DNA of 9,746 nucleotides from a virus (lineage: Duplodnaviria > Heunggongvirae > Uroviricota > Caudoviricetes), in the IMG/VR virus record IMGVR_UViG_2609459860_000011, one strand, 5' to 3'. Below are positions 1 through 9,746 of the stretch, piece by piece. Under the pieces are notes generated by a model, which was not told where the DNA came from, did not search any database, and was given only the letters and a program-made list of their open reading frames with translations. Position 1 is the first letter of the stretch; every line of letters begins with the position of its first letter. The position numbers were made by a program, and so were the translations under genes.

Positions 1-411
1 TCTGCAGATTTTAACTCATGGGAATATGTGCCAGACCATCGCGGTGAAATCATCTATAGCACCGAAACAGGAGAATCGAAAGAAATCACAGCTCCGGGTG
101 ATTATCCTGAAAATACAACCACTATCGCCCCGTTAACGCCATACGATAAATGGGATGGTGAGAAATGGGTGACCGATACTGAGGCACAGCATAGCGCCGC
201 AGTAGGCGCGGCAGAAGCACAGCGTCAGTCACTGATTGATACTGCAATGGCTTCCATTAGTCTGATTCAACTGAAATTGCAGGCCGGGCGGAAGCTGATG
301 CAGACAGAAAACACCCGACTTAACGCTGTGCTGGATTATATTGACGCGGTGACGGCAACAGATACCAGCACAGCGCCGGACGTCATCTGGCCTGAACTGC
401 CGGAGGCGTAG
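1..411 (+). CDS. Tail fibre assembly protein (Tfa, P2 gpG-like), 5'-truncated by the window edge; copy in the currently expressed orientation
   Basis: Frame 1 is open from base 1 (no stop) to TAA at 409-411; the ORF track's GTG at 28 is internal. The C-terminus ...NAVLDYIDAVTATDTSTAPDVIWPELPEA carries the Tfa-family motif (LDYxDAx...APD-x-W-P-x-x-P) and is paralogous to the C-terminus of the minus-strand ORF 383..826. The two genes overlap convergently at their 3' ends (383-411), as in Mu G, P1 C and e14 P segments. Confidence 0.75.
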   Translation, partial: SADFNSWEYVPDHRGEIIYSTETGESKEITAPGDYPENTTTIAPLTPYDKWDGEKWVTDTEAQHSAAVGAAEAQRQSLIDTAMASISLIQLKLQAGRKLMQTENTRLNAVLDYIDAVTATDTSTAPDVIWPELPEA

Positions 412-826
412 GCCATTCAATATCTGGAGCGCTGGAGATATCAACCAGTTCCAGTGCGTCCAGATAATCCAGCCATAAATTATATTGTTCCAGCTCGTCA
501 CCTTTCAGACGACCAATAGCAGCTTTGCCAGGCCACTGATGGGTATTGATGTAGGTATTGACTTCTGAAACCAAAGATATTTTTTTCATTTCAGCCGCCA
601 GCACCTCATCCTCTTTTGAAGGCGGTGGGGAATTAATCCATACTGGTCGTCCTGAACTGTCAGCGCCAATTTCTTTCCCTTCTGGATGCAGCCCAAGAAA
701 TTGCTCATATGTTTCTCTGGTAATTTCAATAACATCATCAGGAAGCGTTCCCGCATCCTCATATTCTGGAAACAATTCTTGCAGATAAAAACTTTTACTT
801 CCGGGTGAAAAGAATACTGAGTTCAT
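383..826 (-). CDS. Tail fibre assembly protein, alternate copy (Tfa') in the currently silent orientation
   Basis: 147-aa ORF, ATG at 826-824 (minus). C-terminus ...NLWLDYLDALELVDISSAPDIEWPTPPAVQAR is the same motif as the plus-strand tfa. It starts 2 nt after the stop (831-829) of the upstream minus-strand fibre cassette, i.e. a fibre-Cterm/tfa pair. Confidence 0.75.
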   Translation of the reverse strand: MNSVFFSPGSKSFYLQELFPEYEDAGTLPDDVIEITRETYEQFLGLHPEGKEIGADSSGRPVWINSPPPSKEDEVLAAEMKKISLVSEVNTYINTHQWPGKAAIGRLKGDELEQYNLWLDYLDALELVDISSAPDIEWPTPPAVQAR

Positions 827-828
827 TC

Positions 829-1323
829 TTACCGTCCAATGATTAACGCTGAGACGCTGGTATCTGAAGGAAAGGCTGCATTCAGTGGTTTGTCGACTTT
901 GAACACAATCGTATTATTCCCCCTGACAGCGGCAAAAGAACAAACCGCCGTCGCGTATGAACCTGTAATATTACTGGATACACCACCATAAGCTGTTGTT
1001 GATACCAGAGGGATAACGCCCAGCACCTTATTAGGAAATACAAAGGGCAATGTGGCTGTGGCAATATAAGACTTATTAGAACCTGTAATGGCATAAGCAT
1101 TATCAGTCATTCCATTCATCGCCACTGGACCGCTTATACTTACAGTAACCATCTGAATGATTAGCCCGTCAGGTTGACGAATCACAAAATTTCCATTGCC
1201 ACCAGTAACCGTCCAGAAAGACATATCAGGGATTTGGTTTTCCCCGTTGCCCACATTTCGTTTTGCCGCTTCTCCCAAACCAACGTTTATGAAAATGCAG
1301 AGATAACGGCTAACTGGCATCAT
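829..1323 (-). CDS. Alternate tail-fibre C-terminal (receptor-binding) cassette; probably promoterless and expressed only as a fusion to the constant fibre N-terminus after inversion
   Basis: Minus-strand ORF whose 5' end contains the crossover site (1270-1295, encoding ...IFINVGLGEA...). Gly/Ser/Thr/Val/Asn-rich composition typical of fibre tips. Directly followed by tfa'. The ATG at 1323 may be fortuitous. Confidence 0.6.
   Translation of the reverse strand: MMPVSRYLCIFINVGLGEAAKRNVGNGENQIPDMSFWTVTGGNGNFVIRQPDGLIIQMVTVSISGPVAMNGMTDNAYAITGSNKSYIATATLPFVFPNKVLGVIPLVSTTAYGGVSSNITGSYATAVCSFAAVRGNNTIVFKVDKPLNAAFPSDTSVSALIIGR
1270..1295. other. hix/gix/pix-type crossover site for the serine invertase (right boundary of the invertible segment)
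   Basis: TTCTCCCAAACC-AA-CGTTTATGAAAA: two imperfect 12-bp inverted half-sites around a central AA, matching the remembered hixL TTCTTGAAAACC-AA-GGTTTTTGATAA at most positions. It lies 55 bp upstream of the invertase start and inside the 5' end of the silent fibre cassette. Confidence 0.6.
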
Positions 1324-1350
1324 CTCCGGTTTTTATTCAGGGGATCCATC

Positions 1351-1944
1351 ATGCTTATTGGCTATGTCCGCGTATCAACAAATGACCAGAACACGGAATT
1401 GCAGCGTAACGCGCTGGAATGCGCGGGATGTGAGCGGATTTTTGAGGACAAAATCAGCGGCACGAAGTCCGACAGGCCGGGACTGAAAAAACTGCTCAGG
1501 ACATTATCGGATGGGGATACACTGGTAGTCTGGAAGCTGGACCGGCTGGGGCGTAGTATGCGGCATCTGGTCATTCTAGTTGAGGAACTGCGCGAACGTG
1601 GCATTAATTTTCGCAGCCTGACGGATGCTATTGATACCAGCACGCCGATGGGGCGTTTTTTCTTTCATGTGATGGGTGCCCTGGCTGAAATGGAGCGAGA
1701 ACTCATTGTCGAGCGGACACGCGCCGGACTGGAAGCGGCCAGAGCCAAAGGTCGTATTGGTGGCAGACGTCCGAAACTCACCGCGAGTGAGTGGGAGCAG
1801 GTCGGACGGTTGCTGGCTGCGGGGGAATCTCGTCAACGCGTGGCGCTGATTTTTGATATTGGCCTGTCCACGCTCTATAAAAAATTCCCCTCATCAGCGA
1901 CAAAGAATAAATTGTGTCATCCCTTAGCCAACCGGGACAAATAG
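1351..1944 (+). CDS. Serine DNA invertase, Gin/Pin/Hin/Cin family
   Basis: Starts MLIGYVRVSTNDQNTELQRNAL... (catalytic Ser in RVSTNDQ); conserved ...DTLVVWKLDRLGRSM...GRFFFHVMGALAEMERELIVERT... and C-terminal HTH ...ALIFDIGLSTLYKKF. Close to my memory of Mu Gin and e14 Pin. RBS AGGGGA at 1339-1344. The ORF-track start at 1174 is an upstream in-frame extension running antisense through the fibre cassette; the real start is the ATG at 1351. Confidence 0.9.
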   Translation: MLIGYVRVSTNDQNTELQRNALECAGCERIFEDKISGTKSDRPGLKKLLRTLSDGDTLVVWKLDRLGRSMRHLVILVEELRERGINFRSLTDAIDTSTPMGRFFFHVMGALAEMERELIVERTRAGLEAARAKGRIGGRRPKLTASEWEQVGRLLAAGESRQRVALIFDIGLSTLYKKFPSSATKNKLCHPLANRDK

Positions 1945-2003: not shown

Positions 2004-3194
2004 ATGAGTGACTATCATCACGGCGTGCAGGTGCTGGAGATTAACGACGGCACCCGCGTCATTTCCACCGTATCCACGGCCATTGTCGGCATGGTCTGCA
2101 CGGCCAGCGATGCGGATGCGGAAACCTTCCCCCTCAATAAACCGGTGCTGATTACCAATGTGCAGAGCGCAATTGCAAAGGCCGGTAAAAAAGGCACGCT
2201 GGCGGCGTCGTTACAGGCCATCGCTGACCAGTCAAAACCGGTCACCGTTGTTGTGCGCGTGGAAGACGGCACCGGCGACGACGAGGAAACGAAACTTGCG
2301 CAGACCGTTTCCAATATCATCGGCACCACCGACGAAAACGGTCAGTACACCGGACTGAAAGCCCTGCTGGCGGCGGAGTCGGTAACCGGTGTTAAACCGC
2401 GCATTCTCGGTGTGCCGGGACTGGACACCAAAGAGGTGGCTGTTGCACTGGCATCAGTCTGTCAGAAGCTGCGCGCTTTCGGGTATATCAGCGCATGGGG
2501 CTGTAAGACCATTTCCGAGGTGAAAGCCTACCGCCAGAATTTCAGCCAGCGTGAACTGATGGTTATCTGGCCGGATTTCCTCGCATGGGATACGGTCACC
2601 AGTACCACCGCCACCGCGTATGCCACCGCCCGTGCGCTGGGTCTGCGCGCTAAAATCGACCAGGAGCAGGGCTGGCATAAAACGCTGTCCAACGTCGGGG
2701 TAAACGGTGTTACCGGCATCAGCGCGTCCGTATTCTGGGATTTGCAGGAGTCCGGCACCGATGCTGACCTGCTTAACGAGTCTGGCGTCACTACGCTGAT
2801 TCGCCGCGACGGTTTCCGCTTCTGGGGTAACCGTACCTGCTCTGATGACCCGCTGTTCCTCTTTGAAAACTACACCCGCACCGCGCAGGTGCTGGCCGAC
2901 ACGATGGCTGAGGCGCACATGTGGGCGGTGGACAAGCCCATCACCGCAACGCTGATTCGCGACATCATTGACGGCATCAATGCCAAATTCCGTGAGCTGA
3001 AAACAAACGGCTATATCGTGGATGGCTCATGCTGGTTCAGCGAAGAATCCAACGATGCGGAAACCCTCAAGGCCGGAAAACTGTATATTGACTACGACTA
3101 TACCCCGGTGCCTCCTCTTGAAAACCTGACCCTGCGCCAGCGTATTACCGATAAATACCTGGCAAATCTGGTCACCTCGGTTAACAGCAATTAA
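2004..3194 (+). CDS. FI: Contractile tail sheath protein (P2 gpFI)
   Basis: 396 aa, the same length as P2 FI; sequence MSDYHHGVQVLEINDGTRVI... recognised as P2-type sheath. RBS GGAG 8 nt upstream. Confidence 0.9.
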   Translation: MSDYHHGVQVLEINDGTRVISTVSTAIVGMVCTASDADAETFPLNKPVLITNVQSAIAKAGKKGTLAASLQAIADQSKPVTVVVRVEDGTGDDEETKLAQTVSNIIGTTDENGQYTGLKALLAAESVTGVKPRILGVPGLDTKEVAVALASVCQKLRAFGYISAWGCKTISEVKAYRQNFSQRELMVIWPDFLAWDTVTSTTATAYATARALGLRAKIDQEQGWHKTLSNVGVNGVTGISASVFWDLQESGTDADLLNESGVTTLIRRDGFRFWGNRTCSDDPLFLFENYTRTAQVLADTMAEAHMWAVDKPITATLIRDIIDGINAKFRELKTNGYIVDGSCWFSEESNDAETLKAGKLYIDYDYTPVPPLENLTLRQRITDKYLANLVTSVNSN

Positions 3195-3206: not shown

Positions 3207-3725
3207 ATGGCAATGCCGCGCAAACTCAAGTTAATGAACGTCTTTCTGAACGGCTACAGCTATCAGGGCGTCGCGAAGTCCGTCACGCTGCCAAAACTGA
3301 CCCGTAAGCTCGAAAACTATCGCGGTGCGGGAATGAACGGCAGCGCACCGGTAGACCTCGGCCTTGATGACGATGCGCTGTCAATGGAGTGGTCGCTCGG
3401 GGGCTTCCCGGATTCGGTTATCTGGGAGCTTTACGCCGCAACCAGTGTGGATGCTGTGCCGATTCGTTTTGCAGGCTCTTACCAGCGCGACGATACCGGC
3501 GAAACGGTGGCCGTCGAGGTGGTCATGCGTGGACGTCAGAAAGAAATCGACACCGGCGAGGGCAAACAGGGAGAAGACACCGAGTCGAAAATCTCCGTGG
3601 TCTGCACCTATTTCCGGCTGACGATGGACGGTAAGGAGCTGGTCGAAATCGACACCATCAACATGATTGAGAAGGTGAACGGCGTCGACCGGCTGGAGCA
3701 ACACCGCCGCAATATCGGCCTGTGA
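3207..3725 (+). CDS. FII: Tail tube protein (P2 gpFII)
   Basis: 172 aa, MAMPRKLKLMNVFLNGYSYQGVAKSVTLPKL...; RBS AAGGAG at 3193-3198; position immediately after the sheath gene as in P2. Confidence 0.9.
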   Translation: MAMPRKLKLMNVFLNGYSYQGVAKSVTLPKLTRKLENYRGAGMNGSAPVDLGLDDDALSMEWSLGGFPDSVIWELYAATSVDAVPIRFAGSYQRDDTGETVAVEVVMRGRQKEIDTGEGKQGEDTESKISVVCTYFRLTMDGKELVEIDTINMIEKVNGVDRLEQHRRNIGL

Positions 3726-3733
3726 TTTTCATC

Positions 3734-3754
3734 CGGTCAGCCTGGCTGACCGGT
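3734..3754 (+). other. Perfect 9-bp stem / 3-nt loop hairpin in the FII-E intergenic region (possible attenuator or mRNA processing/stability element)
   Basis: CCGGTCAGC-CTG-GCTGACCGG, 9 nt after the FII stop; no following T-run, so not a classical intrinsic terminator. Confidence 0.35.
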
Positions 3755-3781
3755 TAACCCCGATTCAGAAGTGAGAAAACC

Positions 3782-4057
3782 ATGAACAAAGAAAATGTGA
3801 TTACCCTGGACAATCCGGTCAAGCGTGGTGAGCAGGTTATCGAACAGGTCACGCTGATGAAACCCAATGCCGGGACGCTGCGCGGTGTCAGTCTGGCTGC
3901 GGTCGCGAACTCTGAAGTCGATGCACTGATTAAGGTGCTGCCGCGCATGACGGCACCGATGCTGACCGAGCAGGAAGTCGCCGCGCTGGAACTGCCTGAC
4001 CTTGTGGCGCTGGCCGGTAAGGTGGTCGGTTTTTTGTCGCCGAACTCGGTGCAGTGA
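3782..4057 (+). CDS. E: Tail assembly chaperone gpE (zero-frame product)
   Basis: 91 aa, MNKENVITLDNPVKRGEQVIEQVTLMKPNAG..., ending ...KVVGFLSPNSVQ. Confidence 0.85.
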   Translation: MNKENVITLDNPVKRGEQVIEQVTLMKPNAGTLRGVSLAAVANSEVDALIKVLPRMTAPMLTEQEVAALELPDLVALAGKVVGFLSPNSVQ

Positions 4058-4209
4058 CGTTTCCGAAAAATCTCTCGGTCGATGACCTGATGGCAGATGT
4101 GGCAGTGATATTTCACTGGCCGCCATCAGAACTGTATCCCATGAGCCTGACCGAACTCATCACATGGCGCGAAAAGGCGCTCCGGCGAAGCGGAAACACG
4201 AATGAGTAA
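3782..4209 (+). CDS. E+E': gpE+E' extended chaperone made by programmed -1 ribosomal frameshift (analogue of lambda G/GT)
   Basis: Slippery heptamer T-TTT-TTG at 4030-4036 in the E frame (GGT TTT TTG). The -1 frame is open from 4036 to TAA at 4207-4209 and encodes ...VAELGAVTFPKNLSVDDLMADVAVIFHWPPSELYPMSLTELITWREKALRRSGNTNE. The stop overlaps the T start codon (ATG 4202-4204). Total about 142 aa, as for P2 E+E'. Confidence 0.7.
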
Positions 4210-6649
4210 CAATGTAAAATTACAGGTATTGCTCAGGGCTGTTGACCAGGCATCCCGCCCGTTTAAATCCATCCGTACAGCGAGCAAGTCGCTGTCGGGG
4301 GATATCCGGGAAACACAAAAATCACTGCGCGAGCTGAACGGTCAGGCGTCCCGTATTGAGGGATTTCGCAAGACCAGTGCGCAGCTCGCCGTGACTGGTC
4401 ATGCACTTGAAAAGGCTCGGCAGGAAGCCGAAGCCCTTGCCACACAGTTTAAAAACACCGAACGTCCGACCCGTGCTCAGGCGAAAGTGCTGGAATCCGC
4501 AAAGCGTGCGGCGGAGGACTTACAGGCGAAATATAACCGCCTGACGGATTCCGTTAAACGCCAGCAGCGGGAACTGGCCGCTGTGGGAATTAATACCCGC
4601 AATCTTGCACATGATGAGCAGGGGCTGAAAAACCGTATCAGTGAAACCACCGCACAGCTTAACCGTCAGCGCGACGCACTGGCGCGTGTCAGTGCACAAC
4701 AGGCAAAACTTAACGCAGTCAAACAGCATTATCAGGCCGGAAAGGAACTGGCAGGAAATATGGCCTCAGTGGGCGCTGCCGGTGTGGGGATTGCTGCTGC
4801 GGGAACGATGGCCGGTGTTAAGCTGCTGATGCCCGGTTATGAGTTTGCGCAGAAAAACTCAGAATTGCAGGCTGTGCTCGGTGTGGCAAAAGACTCCGCC
4901 GAAATGGCCGCATTACGCAAACAGGCGCGCCAGCTCGGCGACAATACCGCCGCCTCGGCGGATGATGCGGCCGGTGCACAGATAATCATCGCGAAAGCGG
5001 GTGGGGATGTTGATGCCATTCAGGCGGCAACGCCGGTCACGCTGAATATGGCGCTGGCGAACCGCCGCACGATGGAAGAAAACGCCGCCCTGCTGATGGG
5101 GATGAAATCCGCCTTTCAGCTTTCAAACGATAAGGTCGCTCATATCGGGGATGTTCTCTCCATGACGATGAACAAAACCGCCGCCGATTTTGACGGCATG
5201 AGCGATGCGCTGACCTATGCCGCACCTGTGGCAAAAAATGCCGGTGTCAGCATTGAAGAAACCGCCGCAATGGTCGGGGCGCTGCATGATGCAAAAATTA
5301 CAGGCTCAATGGCGGGGACGGGAAGCCGTGCCGTGTTAAGTCGCCTGCAGGCACCAACGGGAAAAGCATGGGATGCACTCAAAGAGCTTGGCGTGAAAAC
5401 CTCAGACAGCAAGGGAAACACCCGGCCAATATTTACCATTCTGAAAGAAATGCAGGCCAGTTTTGAGAAAAACCGGCTCGGTACTGCCCAGCAGGCTGAA
5501 TACATGAAAACTATTTTCGGGGAGGAGGCCAGCTCAGCCGCCGCCGTGCTGATGACTGCCGCCTCAACCGGAAAGCTGGACAAACTGACCGCTGCGTTTA
5601 AAGCCTCAGACGGGAAGACTGCCGAGCTGGTAAATATCATGCAGGACAACCTCGGCGGTGACTTTAAGGAGTTTCAGTCCGCTTATGAGGCGGTGGGGAC
5701 TGACCTGTTTGACCAGCAGGAAGGCGCACTGCGTAAGCTCACGCAGACGGCCACAAAGTATGTGTTAAAACTCGACGGCTGGATACAGAAAAACAAATCA
5801 CTGGCGTCAACCATTGGTCTCATTGCCGGTGGCGCACTGGCGCTTACTGGCATCATCGGTGCCATTGGCCTCGTAGCCTGGCCGGTTATCACCGGCATCA
5901 ATGCCATCATCGCGGCAGCAGGCGCAATGGGGGCAATCTTCACGACGGTTGGCAGTGCCGTTATGACGGCCATCGGGGCGATTAGCTGGCCGGTTGTGGC
6001 CGTGGTGGCCGCCATTGTCGCCGGGGCGTTGCTTATCCGTAAATACTGGGAGCCTGTCAGCGCATTCTTTGGCGGTGTGGTGGAAGGGCTGAAAGCGGCA
6101 TTTGCGCCGGTGGGGGAACTGTTCACGCCACTTAAGCCGGTGTTTGACTGGCTGGGTGAAAAGTTACAGGCCGTGTGGCAGTGGTTTAAAAACCTGATTG
6201 CCCCGGTCAAAGCCACACAGGACACCCTGAACCGTTGCCGTGACACGGGCGTCATGTTCGGGCAGGCACTGGCTGACGCGTTAATGCTGCCGCTTAATGC
6301 GTTCAACAAACTGCGCAGCGGTATTGACTGGGTACTGGAAAAACTCGGTGTTATCAACAAAGAGTCAGACACACTTGACCAGACCGCCGCAAGGACTAAT
6401 GCCGTCACGTATGGCACCGGTGGTTATATTCCGGCGACCAGCTCTTATGCAGGCTATCAGGCTTATCAGCCGGTCACGGCACCGGCTGGTCGCTCTTATG
6501 TGGACCAGAGTAAAAACGAATATCACATCAGCCTGACGGGCGGTACTGCGCCAGGGACACAGCTCGACCGCCAGTTACAGGATGCACTCGAAAAATACGA
6601 GCGGGATAAACGTGCGCGCGCCCGTGCCAGCATGATGCATGACGGTTAA
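4202..6649 (+). CDS. T: Tail tape measure protein (P2 gpT)
   Basis: 815 aa, the same length as P2 T. N-terminal coiled-coil-like Gln/Ala/Arg/Leu-rich region and a central Gly/Ala/Ile-rich hydrophobic stretch typical of tape measure proteins. Start is translationally coupled to the E' end. Confidence 0.9.
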   Translation: MSNNVKLQVLLRAVDQASRPFKSIRTASKSLSGDIRETQKSLRELNGQASRIEGFRKTSAQLAVTGHALEKARQEAEALATQFKNTERPTRAQAKVLESAKRAAEDLQAKYNRLTDSVKRQQRELAAVGINTRNLAHDEQGLKNRISETTAQLNRQRDALARVSAQQAKLNAVKQHYQAGKELAGNMASVGAAGVGIAAAGTMAGVKLLMPGYEFAQKNSELQAVLGVAKDSAEMAALRKQARQLGDNTAASADDAAGAQIIIAKAGGDVDAIQAATPVTLNMALANRRTMEENAALLMGMKSAFQLSNDKVAHIGDVLSMTMNKTAADFDGMSDALTYAAPVAKNAGVSIEETAAMVGALHDAKITGSMAGTGSRAVLSRLQAPTGKAWDALKELGVKTSDSKGNTRPIFTILKEMQASFEKNRLGTAQQAEYMKTIFGEEASSAAAVLMTAASTGKLDKLTAAFKASDGKTAELVNIMQDNLGGDFKEFQSAYEAVGTDLFDQQEGALRKLTQTATKYVLKLDGWIQKNKSLASTIGLIAGGALALTGIIGAIGLVAWPVITGINAIIAAAGAMGAIFTTVGSAVMTAIGAISWPVVAVVAAIVAGALLIRKYWEPVSAFFGGVVEGLKAAFAPVGELFTPLKPVFDWLGEKLQAVWQWFKNLIAPVKATQDTLNRCRDTGVMFGQALADALMLPLNAFNKLRSGIDWVLEKLGVINKESDTLDQTAARTNAVTYGTGGYIPATSSYAGYQAYQPVTAPAGRSYVDQSKNEYHISLTGGTAPGTQLDRQLQDALEKYERDKRARARASMMHDG

Positions 6650-6663
6650 GGAGGTGACGAAAA

Positions 6664-7143
6664 ATGATGCTCGCGTTAGGTATGTTTGTTTTTATGCGCC
6701 AGACGCTGCCACACCAGACCATGCAGCGTGAATCAGATTATCGCTGGCCGTCAAATTCCCGTATCGGTAAACGGGATGCCTACCAGTTTCTCGGTGTGGG
6801 TGAGGAAAACATTACGCTTGCAGGCGTGCTTTATCCCGAACTGACCGGCGGGAAGCTGACGATGACCACGCTCAGGCTGATGGCAGAGGAAGGCCGGGCG
6901 TGGCCGTTGCTGGATGGCACCGGCATGATTTACGGCATGTATGTCATCAGCAGGGTGAGTGAAACAGGGAGTATTTTCTTTGCAGACGGCACACCCCGGA
7001 AAATTGATTTTACGCTGTCACTCACCCGCGTTGATGAATCACTGGCCGCGCTTTATGGCGATATCGGTAAACAGGCGGAATCGCTCATCGGTAAGGCTGG
7101 CAGTATGGCGACTAAATTCACGGGTATGACGGGGGCGGGATAA
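6664..7143 (+). CDS. U: Tail protein gpU
   Basis: 159 aa, MMLALGMFVFMRQTLPHQTMQRESDYRWPS...; RBS AGGAGG at 6648-6653; stop TAA 7141-7143 overlaps the D start by 1 nt (TAATG). Confidence 0.85.
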   Translation: MMLALGMFVFMRQTLPHQTMQRESDYRWPSNSRIGKRDAYQFLGVGEENITLAGVLYPELTGGKLTMTTLRLMAEEGRAWPLLDGTGMIYGMYVISRVSETGSIFFADGTPRKIDFTLSLTRVDESLAALYGDIGKQAESLIGKAGSMATKFTGMTGAG

Positions 7144-8306
7144 TGCTGGATGCGCTGACATTTGATGCAGGCAGTACGCTGACGCCGGATTACATGCTGA
7201 TGCTCGACAGCAGGGATATTACCGGCAATATCAGCGACCGTCTGATGAGCATGACCCTGACGGATAACCGGGGCTTTGAGGCTGATCAGCTTGATATTGA
7301 ACTGAACGATGCCGACGGGCAGGTCGAACTGCCGGTTCGTGGCGCTGTTCTGACGGTGTATATCGGCTGGAAAGGTTTTGCCCTGGTATGCAAAGGGAAA
7401 TTCACCGTTGATGAGGTAGAACACCGGGGCACGCCGGATGTGGTCGCCATCCGGGCCCGGAGTGCAGATTTTCGTGGCACGCTCAATTCCCGCCGTGAAG
7501 GCTCCTGGCATGACACCACGCTCGGTGCGATTGTTGAGGCGATAGCCTCCCGTAACAGGCTGGAAGCCAGTGTCGCTCCGTCACTGGCCGGAATTAAAAT
7601 CCCGCACATCGACCAGTCGCAGGAGTCTGATGCAAAATTCCTGACCCGCCTTGCTGAACGCAACGGCGGTGAGGTGTCGGTAAAAATGGGAAAACTGTTG
7701 TTTCTCAAAGCGGGGCAGGGGGGGACGGCCAGCGGTAAAAAAATCCCGCAGATTACCATCACCCGCAGCGACGGCGACCGTCATCATTTTGCGATTGCTG
7801 ACCGTGGAGCCTACACCGGCGTAACGGCAAAGTGGTTACACACCAAAGACCCGAAGCCGCAAAAGCAGAAGGTAAAACTGAAACGCAAAAAGAAAGAGAA
7901 ACACCTGCGCGCACTGGAGCACCCGAAAGCGAAACCGGTCACGCAGAAGAAAGCGCCAAAAGTACCGGAAGCGCGCGAAGGTGAATACATGGCCGGTGAG
8001 GCTGACAATGTTTTTGCCCTGACCACGGTATATGCCACGAAAGCGCAGGCCATGCGCGCCGCTCAGGCGAAGTGGGATAAACTGCAACGGGGCGTTGCGG
8101 AGTTCTCCATCAGCCTGGCTACCGGTCGGGCTGATATTTACACGGAAACACCGGTTAAAGTGTCAGGCTTTAAGCGCGTCATAGACGAGCAGGACTGGAC
8201 AATCACTAAGGTGACACATTTTCTGAATAATAGCGGCTTCACGACGTCCTTAGAGCTTGAGGTCAGGCTTTCTGATGTGGAGTACGAAACAGAAGATGAA
8301 GAATGA
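7143..8306 (+). CDS. D: Tail protein gpD (P2 late gene D)
   Basis: 387 aa, the same length as P2 D; MLDALTFDAGSTLTPDYMLMLDSRDITGNISDRLMSMTLTDNRGFEADQLDIELNDADGQ...; last gene of the FI-D tail operon. Confidence 0.85.
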   Translation: MLDALTFDAGSTLTPDYMLMLDSRDITGNISDRLMSMTLTDNRGFEADQLDIELNDADGQVELPVRGAVLTVYIGWKGFALVCKGKFTVDEVEHRGTPDVVAIRARSADFRGTLNSRREGSWHDTTLGAIVEAIASRNRLEASVAPSLAGIKIPHIDQSQESDAKFLTRLAERNGGEVSVKMGKLLFLKAGQGGTASGKKIPQITITRSDGDRHHFAIADRGAYTGVTAKWLHTKDPKPQKQKVKLKRKKKEKHLRALEHPKAKPVTQKKAPKVPEAREGEYMAGEADNVFALTTVYATKAQAMRAAQAKWDKLQRGVAEFSISLATGRADIYTETPVKVSGFKRVIDEQDWTITKVTHFLNNSGFTTSLELEVRLSDVEYETEDEE

Positions 8307-8324: not shown

Positions 8325-8353
8325 TTGTTTTGTAAGGATAAATTAACTAAAAT
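8325..8353 (+). promoter_or_regulatory. Candidate sigma70 promoter for ogr
   Basis: -35 TTGTTT (8325-8330), 17-bp spacer, -10 TAAAAT (8348-8353); would give a 5' UTR of about 28 nt before the ogr ATG. ogr is known to have its own promoter in P2. Confidence 0.35.
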
Positions 8354-8387
8354 GGCACCATCAACAAAACCGGAAGAGGTGCTCGCG

Positions 8388-8606
8388 ATGTTTCATTGTC
8401 CTTTATGCCAGCATGCCGCACATGCGCGTACAAGTCGCTATATCACTGACACGACAAAAGAGCGTTATCACCAGTGTCAGAACGTGAATTGCAGCGCCAC
8501 GTTCATCACTTATGAGTCGGTACAGCGATACATCGTGAAGCCGGGAGAAGTCCACGCAGTAAGGCCGCACCCGTTGCCGTCAGGGCAGCAAATTATGTGG
8601 ATGTGA
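8388..8606 (+). CDS. ogr: Ogr zinc-finger late-gene transcriptional activator (Ogr/Delta family)
   Basis: 72 aa, MFHCPLCQHAAHARTSRYITDTTKERYHQCQNVNCSATFITYESVQRYIVKPGEVHAVRPHPLPSGQQIMWM; Cys4 motif CPLC...CQNVNC. RBS GGAAGAGG at 8372-8379. The ORF-track start at 8325 is an in-frame upstream extension with no RBS. Confidence 0.85.
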   Translation: MFHCPLCQHAAHARTSRYITDTTKERYHQCQNVNCSATFITYESVQRYIVKPGEVHAVRPHPLPSGQQIMWM

Positions 8607-8617
8607 TCACAAAAATA

Positions 8618-8645
8618 GCCCCTCAGTTGAGGGGCTTTATTTATG
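8618..8645 (+). terminator. Rho-independent terminator after ogr
   Basis: AGCCCCTC-AGTT-GAGGGGCT (8-bp GC-rich stem, 4-nt loop) followed by TTATTTAT. Confidence 0.6.
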
Positions 8646-8650
8646 GTCGA

Positions 8651-8669
8651 TGTGGACGCTATGTGGACA
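8651..8669 (+). other. Direct repeats ATGTGGAC x2 (a third, ATGTGGAT, at 8595-8602): candidate integrase arm-type binding sites of the prophage att arm
   Basis: gATGTGGACgctATGTGGACAg between the ogr terminator and the host-side terminator. I recall, without certainty, that P2 Int arm sites resemble TGTGGACA. An IHF-like site TATCATCAGGTTA (8693-8705) lies just downstream. Confidence 0.3.
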
Positions 8670-8734
8670 GTGGTTTATATAAATCCATTTATATCATCAG
8701 GTTAGGTGATTTTTTGTGACACCATCCCTGTCTT

Positions 8735-8762
8735 CCCCCACATGATGTGGGGGTTTTTTTTT
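8735..8762 (+). terminator. Strong rho-independent terminator; possibly the duplicated 3' end/terminator of the upstream host locus (cpxP/CpxQ) forming the att core
   Basis: CCCCCAC-ATGAT-GTGGGGG followed by a run of 9 T (8754-8762). It sits 81 bp upstream of fieF. Confidence 0.65.
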
Positions 8763-8843
8763 ATCCTCAATTTGCCTGCTGCTTAATGCATTGCAGATGA
8801 TTTGCTTCCGTTATACTAGCGTCAGTTGATAGCGGGAGTATTT

Positions 8844-9746
8844 ATGAATCAATCTTATGGACGGCTGGTCAGTCGGGCGGCGATTGCTGCGACGGCGATG
8901 GCTTCGTTGCTATTGCTGATTAAAATTTTTGCATGGTGGTATACCGGGTCGGTGAGTATTCTCGCCGCGCTGGTGGATTCGCTGGTGGATATCGGCGCGT
9001 CGTTGACGAATTTACTGGTGGTGCGATATTCCCTGCAACCTGCCGACGATAATCACTCGTTTGGTCACGGTAAAGCAGAGTCCCTCGCGGCGCTGGCGCA
9101 AAGTATGTTTATCTCCGGTTCGGCACTATTCCTGTTTTTGACGGGTATTCAACATCTGATATCTCCAACACCGATGACAGATCCAGGCGTCGGGGTTATC
9201 GTGACAATTGTGGCGCTAATTTGTACGATTATCCTTGTCTCGTTTCAGCGTTGGGTGGTGCGGCGGACGCAAAGCCAGGCGGTGCGGGCTGATATGCTAC
9301 ATTACCAGTCTGATGTTATGATGAACGGCGCAATTCTGCTGGCGCTGGGGTTGTCCTGGTACGGCTGGCATCGCGCCGATGCTCTGTTTGCATTGGGAAT
9401 CGGCATCTATATTTTATATAGCGCGTTACGCATGGGATATGAGGCGGTACAGTCATTACTGGATCGCGCATTGCCTGATGAGGAACGGCAAGAAATTATT
9501 GATATCGTGACTTCCTGGCCGGGTGTTAGCGGCGCTCACGATCTTCGCACGCGGCAGTCAGGGCCGACCCGCTTTATTCAGATTCATTTGGAAATGGAAG
9601 ACTCTCTGCCTTTGGTTCAGGCACATATGGTGGCGGATCAGGTAGAGCAGGCTATTTTACGGCGTTTTCCGGGATCGGATGTAATTATCCATCAGGACCC
9701 CTGTTCCGTCGTACCCAGGGAGGGTAAACGGTCTATGCTTTCATAA
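8844..9746 (+). CDS. fieF: Cation-diffusion-facilitator family Fe(II)/Zn(II) efflux transporter FieF (YiiP)
   Basis: 300 aa, [51 protein letters not shown]..., recognised as E. coli FieF; RBS GGGAG at 8833-8837; TAA at 9744-9746. The ORF-track start at 8826 is an upstream extension. Candidate -10 TATACT at 8812-8817. Confidence 0.9.

Follow-up and report, generated by a model that had tools for sequence, protein, structure and literature searches.

A near-identical prophage copy of the phage P2 E/E' programmed –1 frameshift site and a candidate SD-like element upstream of its slippery heptamer

Two reading frames overlap between the tail tube and the tape-measure genes of a P2-like prophage, and the question that they raise is whether the second is translated as an extension of the first by a programmed –1 ribosomal frameshift, as a small gene of its own, or from a slipped transcript. 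We analyzed this locus at positions 3782–4209 (+ strand) of a 9,746-nt stretch of DNA (IMG/VR record IMGVR_UViG_2609459860_000011; hereafter the window, which denotes the stretch at its full length), for which an initial annotation had proposed a –1 frameshift yielding E+E'. Judged from its sequence, the site is the already known programmed –1 frameshift of P2 E/E' in a near-identical prophage copy, and is in this sense real and ordinary; positions 3782–4209 almost certainly work as an E/E+E' programmed ribosomal frameshift cassette.

The window covers the right end of a Peduovirus (P2-like) prophage adjoining the E. coli gene fieF, and positions 3782–4209 are its E/E' tail-assembly-chaperone recoding cassette. 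The genes along the window follow the order sheath, tube, E, E', tape measure, U, D and ogr, and a Pfam family was matched for each. FI, the sheath gene, occupies 2004–3194; FII, the tail tube gene equivalent to P2 FII, occupies 3207–3725 (+ strand; PF04985 Phage_tube, E = 1.2e-60); T, which encodes an 815-aa tail tape measure and is equivalent to P2 T, occupies 4202–6649 (+ strand; PF10145 PhageMin_Tail, E = 2.4e-45); U and D follow at 6664–7143 and 7143–8306, and ogr lies within 8325–8606. The host gene fieF, for cation efflux (PF01545), covers positions ~8826–9746. E/E' sits between the tube gene FII and the tape-measure gene T, in the conserved order of tube, chaperone and tape measure.

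Several features of the prophage outside this cassette were also recorded. Where P2 has Z/fun, the prophage carries an invertible tail-fibre cassette similar to Mu G and P1 C (window 1–1944), which comprises a tail-fibre assembly gene (28–411, + strand), a second, inverted tail-fibre assembly gene (383–826, – strand), an alternative fibre C-terminus, or fibre tip (829–1323, – strand), and a serine DNA invertase (from the ATG at 1352 to 1944) whose protein begins MLIGYVRVST. A possible core of a crossover site of this cassette, AAACCAACGTTT, was found at 1277–1288, and the left crossover site would fall outside the window. The junction between prophage and host lies in 8606–8830: a terminator-like hairpin (8617–8636) comes after the end of ogr at 8606, another hairpin, which carries a T9 run, lies at 8735–8753, and P2-like similarity ends at ~8697–8843, at a position that varies with the relative compared. 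No exact match to the Ogr-box pattern TGT-N12-ACA was found anywhere in the window.

Gene E (3782–4057, + strand, ATG to TGA) encodes a 91-aa tail assembly chaperone as its zero-frame product, which matched PF10109 Phage_TAC_7 (E = 2.6e-12; 47 bits, cut-off 25) and phrog_103 (E = 3.8e-43). The slippery heptamer T_TTT_TTG (TTTTTTG) is located at 4030–4036 (+ strand) in phase with E; since (4030 – 3782) mod 3 = 2, the zero-frame codons read GG[T TTT TTG], a correctly phased X_XXY_YYZ. The TGA of E at 4055–4057 is the seventh codon past TTG, and every number that the initial annotation had given for the heptamer and its distance of 7 codons to the E stop was reproduced on recomputation. The –1 frame contains a TAA at 4018–4020 (+ strand), three codons before the heptamer, and opens just after it at 4021, so that E and the –1 frame overlap by 37 nt (4021–4057). 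The heptamer lies inside this 12-codon overlap, and no other in-phase heptamer exists in E. Further in-phase X_XXY_YYZ heptamers were seen within T (A_AAA_AAT at 5233, G_GGA_AAA at 5359 and G_GGA_AAC at 5413) and within D (G_GGA_AAA at 7688), and these are probably incidental.

Past the heptamer, the E' extension (4036–4209, + strand) consists of 57 –1-frame codons, which run to 4206, and a TAA at 4207–4209. The recomputed coordinates agree with the earlier description of a 57-codon open –1 frame whose TAA overlaps the ATG of T (ATGAGTAA), and the –1 frame, which had been read by hand, has no stop codon between 4036 and 4206. Translation of 3782–4036 followed by the extension gives a 142-aa E+E' fusion. 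Residues 104–139 of this fusion matched PF06528 Phage_P2_GpE (E = 1.2e-21; 76 bits, cut-off 23), and a match to phrog_1756 bridges the junction (residues 82–142). An NCBIfam scan of the fusion matched no family, and a PDB sequence search with the fusion retrieved no relative of solved structure.

The E–E'–T DNA is ~98% identical to that of P2. Alignment of E–E' with P2 (AF063097) revealed 8 substitutions in 428 nt, and the heptamer was invariant among the window, P2 and L-413C. The predicted E+E' is identical to that of P2 at 141 of 142 residues, the sole change, N29S, being located in E, and the 57-residue E' extension is the same as P2 E'; the complete fusion is identical to that of a prophage of E. 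coli O121. At the DNA level, positions 3700–4300 are 95–99% identical to 74 phage records, which include P2, L-413C, fiAA91-ss and Yersinia and Escherichia peduoviruses, and were also matched in ~1,550 of 5,426 complete E. coli genomes. The P2 record itself annotates the same –1 shift, with a joined E+E' CDS described as 'shares amino terminus with gpE; -1 frameshift; essential tail protein' and a feature named 'site of -1 translational frameshift' whose position is homologous to 4036/4037 of the window. Joined –1 frameshift CDSs are likewise annotated for L-413C, KS5 and Smp131, and the record of phage 186 states 'probably produced by a translational frameshift'. The earlier assignment of the site to the conserved tail-chaperone frameshift exemplified by P2 E/E', and the comparison with the P2 region proposed as its check, are thus borne out by the invariant heptamer, the identical E' and the P2 annotation.

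Because of the 98% DNA identity and the identical E', production of the fusion and the essentiality of E' can be transferred from P2 to the prophage. For P2, Christie et al. (2002, J Bacteriol 184:6522) reportedly obtained a frameshift frequency of ~10% and are said to have demonstrated by complementation that E' is essential. Three later papers that cite this work (PMC3091744, PMC3931495, PMC5009743) report that the P2 fusion arises by –1 frameshifting and that E' is essential. PMC3091744 places the –1 shift at TTTTTTG and gives the products as a 91-aa E and a 142-aa E+E', and PMC3931495 describes the P2 E' frame as one that 'extends 37 nt back into E', lacks an RBS and overlaps T.

We further analyzed the conservation of this arrangement among relatives. 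In 401 of 418 phage records, a tblastn search with the fusion recovered E and E' as two separate pieces, each in a different frame; among the hosts are Burkholderia, Klebsiella, Ralstonia, Pseudomonas, Vibrio and Mannheimia. A diverse set of 17 Peduoviridae loci with protein identities from 80% to 35% was then assembled, and each locus was analyzed mechanically. The initial annotation had named the absence of the heptamer from close relatives as evidence that would speak against the shift; an in-phase heptamer was found within the E/–1 overlap in all 17 loci. It was T_TTT_TTG in 14 of them, and different heptamers occurred in the rest, such as T_TTT_TTT in Smp131, T_TTT_TTC in Vibrio MAR, A_AAT_TTT in a Xuanwuvirus and G_GGA_AAG in Mannheimia PHL101. 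Likewise, in-phase T_TTT_TTN was present in at least 104 of 109 unique IMG/VR loci (85 with G, 10 with A, 5 with C and 4 with T at the last position), a sample that was collected with a degenerate DNA pattern for ADIAxIFHW and is biased to relatives keeping this motif. Four of the five IMG/VR loci scored as lacking the heptamer were artefacts of stop finding in high-GC genomes (–1 frame GFFLAEG or DGFFAAEG). The fifth (L137) looks truly divergent: it keeps the E' motif DDAIADIALIFHW with no recognisable F-F/L slip site or in-phase heptamer in the scan, and may join or express E' differently.

In the alignment of fusions, invariant or nearly invariant residues were observed on both sides of the junction. 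In the –1-frame part, W129 is invariant and A105, D106, A108, E125, R130, A133 and R136 are nearly invariant, which indicates that the –1 frame is under purifying selection at the protein level; ungapped information per codon position past the heptamer was blurred by linker indels. These observations bear on the possibility that an open –1 frame and a heptamer coincide here by chance and have no function. The length of the open frame alone would be compatible with such a coincidence, as 4 of 126 –1-frame runs in the tail genes reach 57 codons (P ~ 0.03), and such a run is unremarkable by itself. However, the PF06528 match to the –1 frame is decisive against it, and the conservation of the –1-frame protein down to 35% identity and the heptamer in at least 95% of the 109 unique loci point in the same direction. 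Chance coincidence is refuted by this homology evidence, and we regard its probability as negligible.

If the –1 frame is translated, it might instead be translated from its own start, as a small gene initiated at GTG 4054 that is no frameshift extension at all. A 51-aa GTG-initiated ORF does exist at 4054–4209, and RefSeq, as well as several phage records, lists E' separately as 'GpE family phage tail protein'. The GTG at 4054, however, has no SD sequence upstream: the computed duplex energy with the anti-SD sequence was –2.3 kcal/mol, compared with a background median of –2.5 kcal/mol. In addition, the annotated E' starts vary in position among relatives, whereas the in-phase heptamer is conserved, and the curated P2 annotation and the citing literature describe E' as translated in a fusion and as lacking an RBS. 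We accordingly rejected an independent start at GTG 4054, which we consider extremely unlikely.

A shift could also arise before translation, if RNA polymerase slipped on the T6 run and added a U to some transcripts, so that ribosomes would reach the –1 frame on these. The slip site is indeed homopolymeric, T6 or T7 is kept in most relatives, and one extra base in the mRNA would bring E' in frame. Nevertheless, transcriptional slippage in bacteria is described for runs of ~9 A or T (PMC5009743), next to which six is short, and the heptamers of a Xuanwuvirus (A_AAT_TTT) and Mannheimia PHL101 (G_GGA_AAG) are non-homopolymeric yet canonical tandem-slip heptamers that fit ribosomal rather than polymerase slippage. 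Relatives also conserve the phase in which the run stands to E, which is relevant to ribosomes and irrelevant to polymerase. Given the short T6 run and the non-homopolymeric heptamers in some relatives, slippage during transcription seems to us highly unlikely, and a –1 shift by the ribosome is the preferred explanation.

With ribosomal frameshifting, the cassette would be expected to operate as follows. Most ribosomes would stay in the zero frame and terminate at the TGA at 4055–4057, yielding the 91-aa gpE, while a minority would slip back by one base on T_TTT_TTG through tandem slippage of tRNA-Phe and tRNA-Leu on UUU and UUG. The shifted ribosomes would decode 57 further codons in the –1 frame up to the TAA at 4207–4209, yielding the 142-aa gpE+E'. 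Two junctions are compatible with the sequence, F-L-V for a tandem slip (...GKVVGFLVAELGAVTFPK) and F-F-V for a P-site slip with –1-frame decoding (...GFFVAELG...). A fixed slip frequency would set the ratio of E to E+E'. By analogy with lambda G/GT, the N-terminal part shared by both products may bind T, the tape measure protein, and the extension encoded by E' may recruit tail tube protein for polymerization of the tube around T; neither gpE nor gpE+E' would remain in the virion.

The control of chaperone stoichiometry by a frameshift is a textbook case for lambda and is established for P2; it concerns two chaperones that are needed for a tail of correct length. The lambda system has reportedly been characterized in frameshift studies by Levin, Hendrix and Casjens (1993) and by Xu, Hendrix and Duda (2004, 2013 and 2014). 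The lambda G/GT heptamer is G_GGA_AAG, compared with T_TTT_TTG here, and the P2 tail, unlike that of lambda, is contractile and has a sheath. The present locus shares with lambda the position of the genes, between the major tail (tube) and tape-measure genes, and the layout of two overlapping ORFs, the first of which is left by a –1 shift shortly before it ends, and the lambda genes have no sequence similarity to P2 E/E' (PMC3931495). In lambda, G and GT have their N-terminal part in common and use it to bind the tape measure, and the extension added by the frameshift binds the major tail (tube) protein (PMC5009743); for P2, we infer the binding partners and the interaction between E' and the tube from this analogy. 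The initial annotation had regarded the shift as fixing the ratio of chaperone to a tape-measure-binding form. That the shift would fix a ratio of two products is retained, but the wording is imprecise, as in lambda both forms bind the tape measure (PMC5009743), and the same would apply to P2 by analogy.

Compared directly with P2 gpE/gpE+E' of the FETUD tail operon, the locus has the same heptamer, phase, 37-nt overlap, 91-aa and 142-aa products and overlap of E' with T (ATGAGTAA); apart from the invertible tail-fibre segment, it differs by N29S in E, by the 8 nucleotide differences in 428 and by its location in a prophage beside fieF. In the overlap at 4202–4209 (+ strand), the ATG of T (4202–4204) precedes the TAA of E' (4207–4209). 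Of 97 relatives, 95 have an E' stop that overlaps the T start or lies directly against it, and in 54 of these the overlap is the same 8 nt; T has a weak SD sequence (–3.5 kcal/mol, upstream region 4182–4198). The conserved overlap together with the weak SD of T suggests a probable coupling of T translation to E' termination by the frameshifted E+E' ribosomes. With these two features, the shift might also meter the synthesis of the tape measure.

The efficiency of the shift raises the question of which elements stimulate it. In E. coli dnaX, the heptamer A_AAA_AAG is flanked by an SD-like stimulator on its 5' side and a stem-loop on its 3' side, and the efficiency is ~50%, compared with ~10% for the P2 type. 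The present site resembles dnaX in having a tandem-slip heptamer that ends in G and an anti-SD-complementary sequence upstream; it differs in that a stable stem-loop 5–9 nt 3' of the shift site is not seen. The predicted fold of 4037–4120 had an energy of –24 kcal/mol, compared with a mean of –22.3 kcal/mol for shuffled sequences (z = –0.55), and is therefore not a significant 3' stimulatory structure; this agrees with PMC3091744, according to which P2-like phages have no hairpin downstream of their slip site. It follows that the efficiency must stem from the heptamer itself and possibly from its 5' context. According to PMC5009743, frameshift efficiency in P2 and its relatives is 2- to 3-fold above that of the low-level G–T shift of lambda.

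The sequence directly 5' of the heptamer is AAGGTGGTCGG, and it contains AGGTGGTC (4020–4027, + strand), which is complementary to the 3' end of 16S rRNA and is a candidate 5' stimulator or pause element. Its AGGTG core (4020–4024) occupies positions –10 to –6 from the heptamer, ends 5 nt before it and can be extended to AGGUGGUC. The duplex energy between the anti-SD sequence and the 18 nt upstream of the heptamer was –14.0 kcal/mol, which is within the top 0.35% of in-phase 18-mers of the tail genes. The core is conserved in the relatives L004–L019 and in the IMG/VR loci from L022 onward: among 104 unique relatives, A was present at –10 in 89, G at –9 in 99, G at –8 in 90, T at –7 in 99 and G at –6 in 72.

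Position –9 is the third base of an AAG (Lys) or GAG (Glu) codon, and this codon ended in G in 86 of 88 loci, compared with 39–44% for Lys and Glu codons elsewhere in the same E genes. When one representative was taken per cluster of ~80% identity, 38 of 39 ended in G against an expectation of 0.40 (binomial test, P = 2.5e-14, a value that overstates independence since the sequences are related). Over the five upstream codons, the observed mean duplex energy was –11.5 kcal/mol, compared with –7.6 kcal/mol under synonymous resampling, and was thus stronger by ~4 kcal/mol (paired Wilcoxon test, P = 3.5e-17; cluster representatives, P = 3e-10). The synonymous-site conservation and the stronger duplex point to selection at the nucleotide level for an anti-SD-complementary element.

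SD-like elements that stimulate –1 frameshifting lie 9–14 nt 5' of the shift site (PMC5009743). Unlike the stimulator of dnaX, the present element is separated from the heptamer by 5 nt, which falls outside this range; if functional, it is therefore not dnaX-like in its geometry. Our literature search, which covered papers other than the primary P2 paper of Christie et al. (2002), found no mention of an SD-like element at this site. We tentatively raise the possibility, which we hold to be rather less than even, that AGGTG is a previously undescribed functional 5' element of the P2-type slip site at a non-canonical spacing. Such an element could keep the ribosome at T_TTT_TTG or make it pause there, and pausing of this kind might explain the 2- to 3-fold higher efficiency of the P2-type shift relative to lambda.

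The frameshift as such matters for annotation only. The claim that standard ORF callers miss it was correct in part: in PGAP and many phage records, E' (window 4054–4209; compare 6355–6510 in L021 and 855–1010 in L002) stands by itself as a 51-aa 'GpE family phage tail protein' that starts at GTG, whereas curated records such as those of P2, L-413C, KS5 and Smp131 join it to E. As E' is split off as a separate ORF, the joined 142-aa E+E' is missing from most annotations, and ~1,500 E. coli genomes with the cassette are among those whose proteomes miss it. Some submissions label the separate E' 'hypothetical protein', and one record gives the name 'GpE+E'' to the plain E ORF. The sole part of our results that possibly adds to the record is the anti-SD-complementary motif, which is conserved at synonymous sites and whose distance to the slip site is non-canonical, and, if functional, AGGTG would extend the spacing rules for bacterial 5' stimulators of –1 frameshifting.
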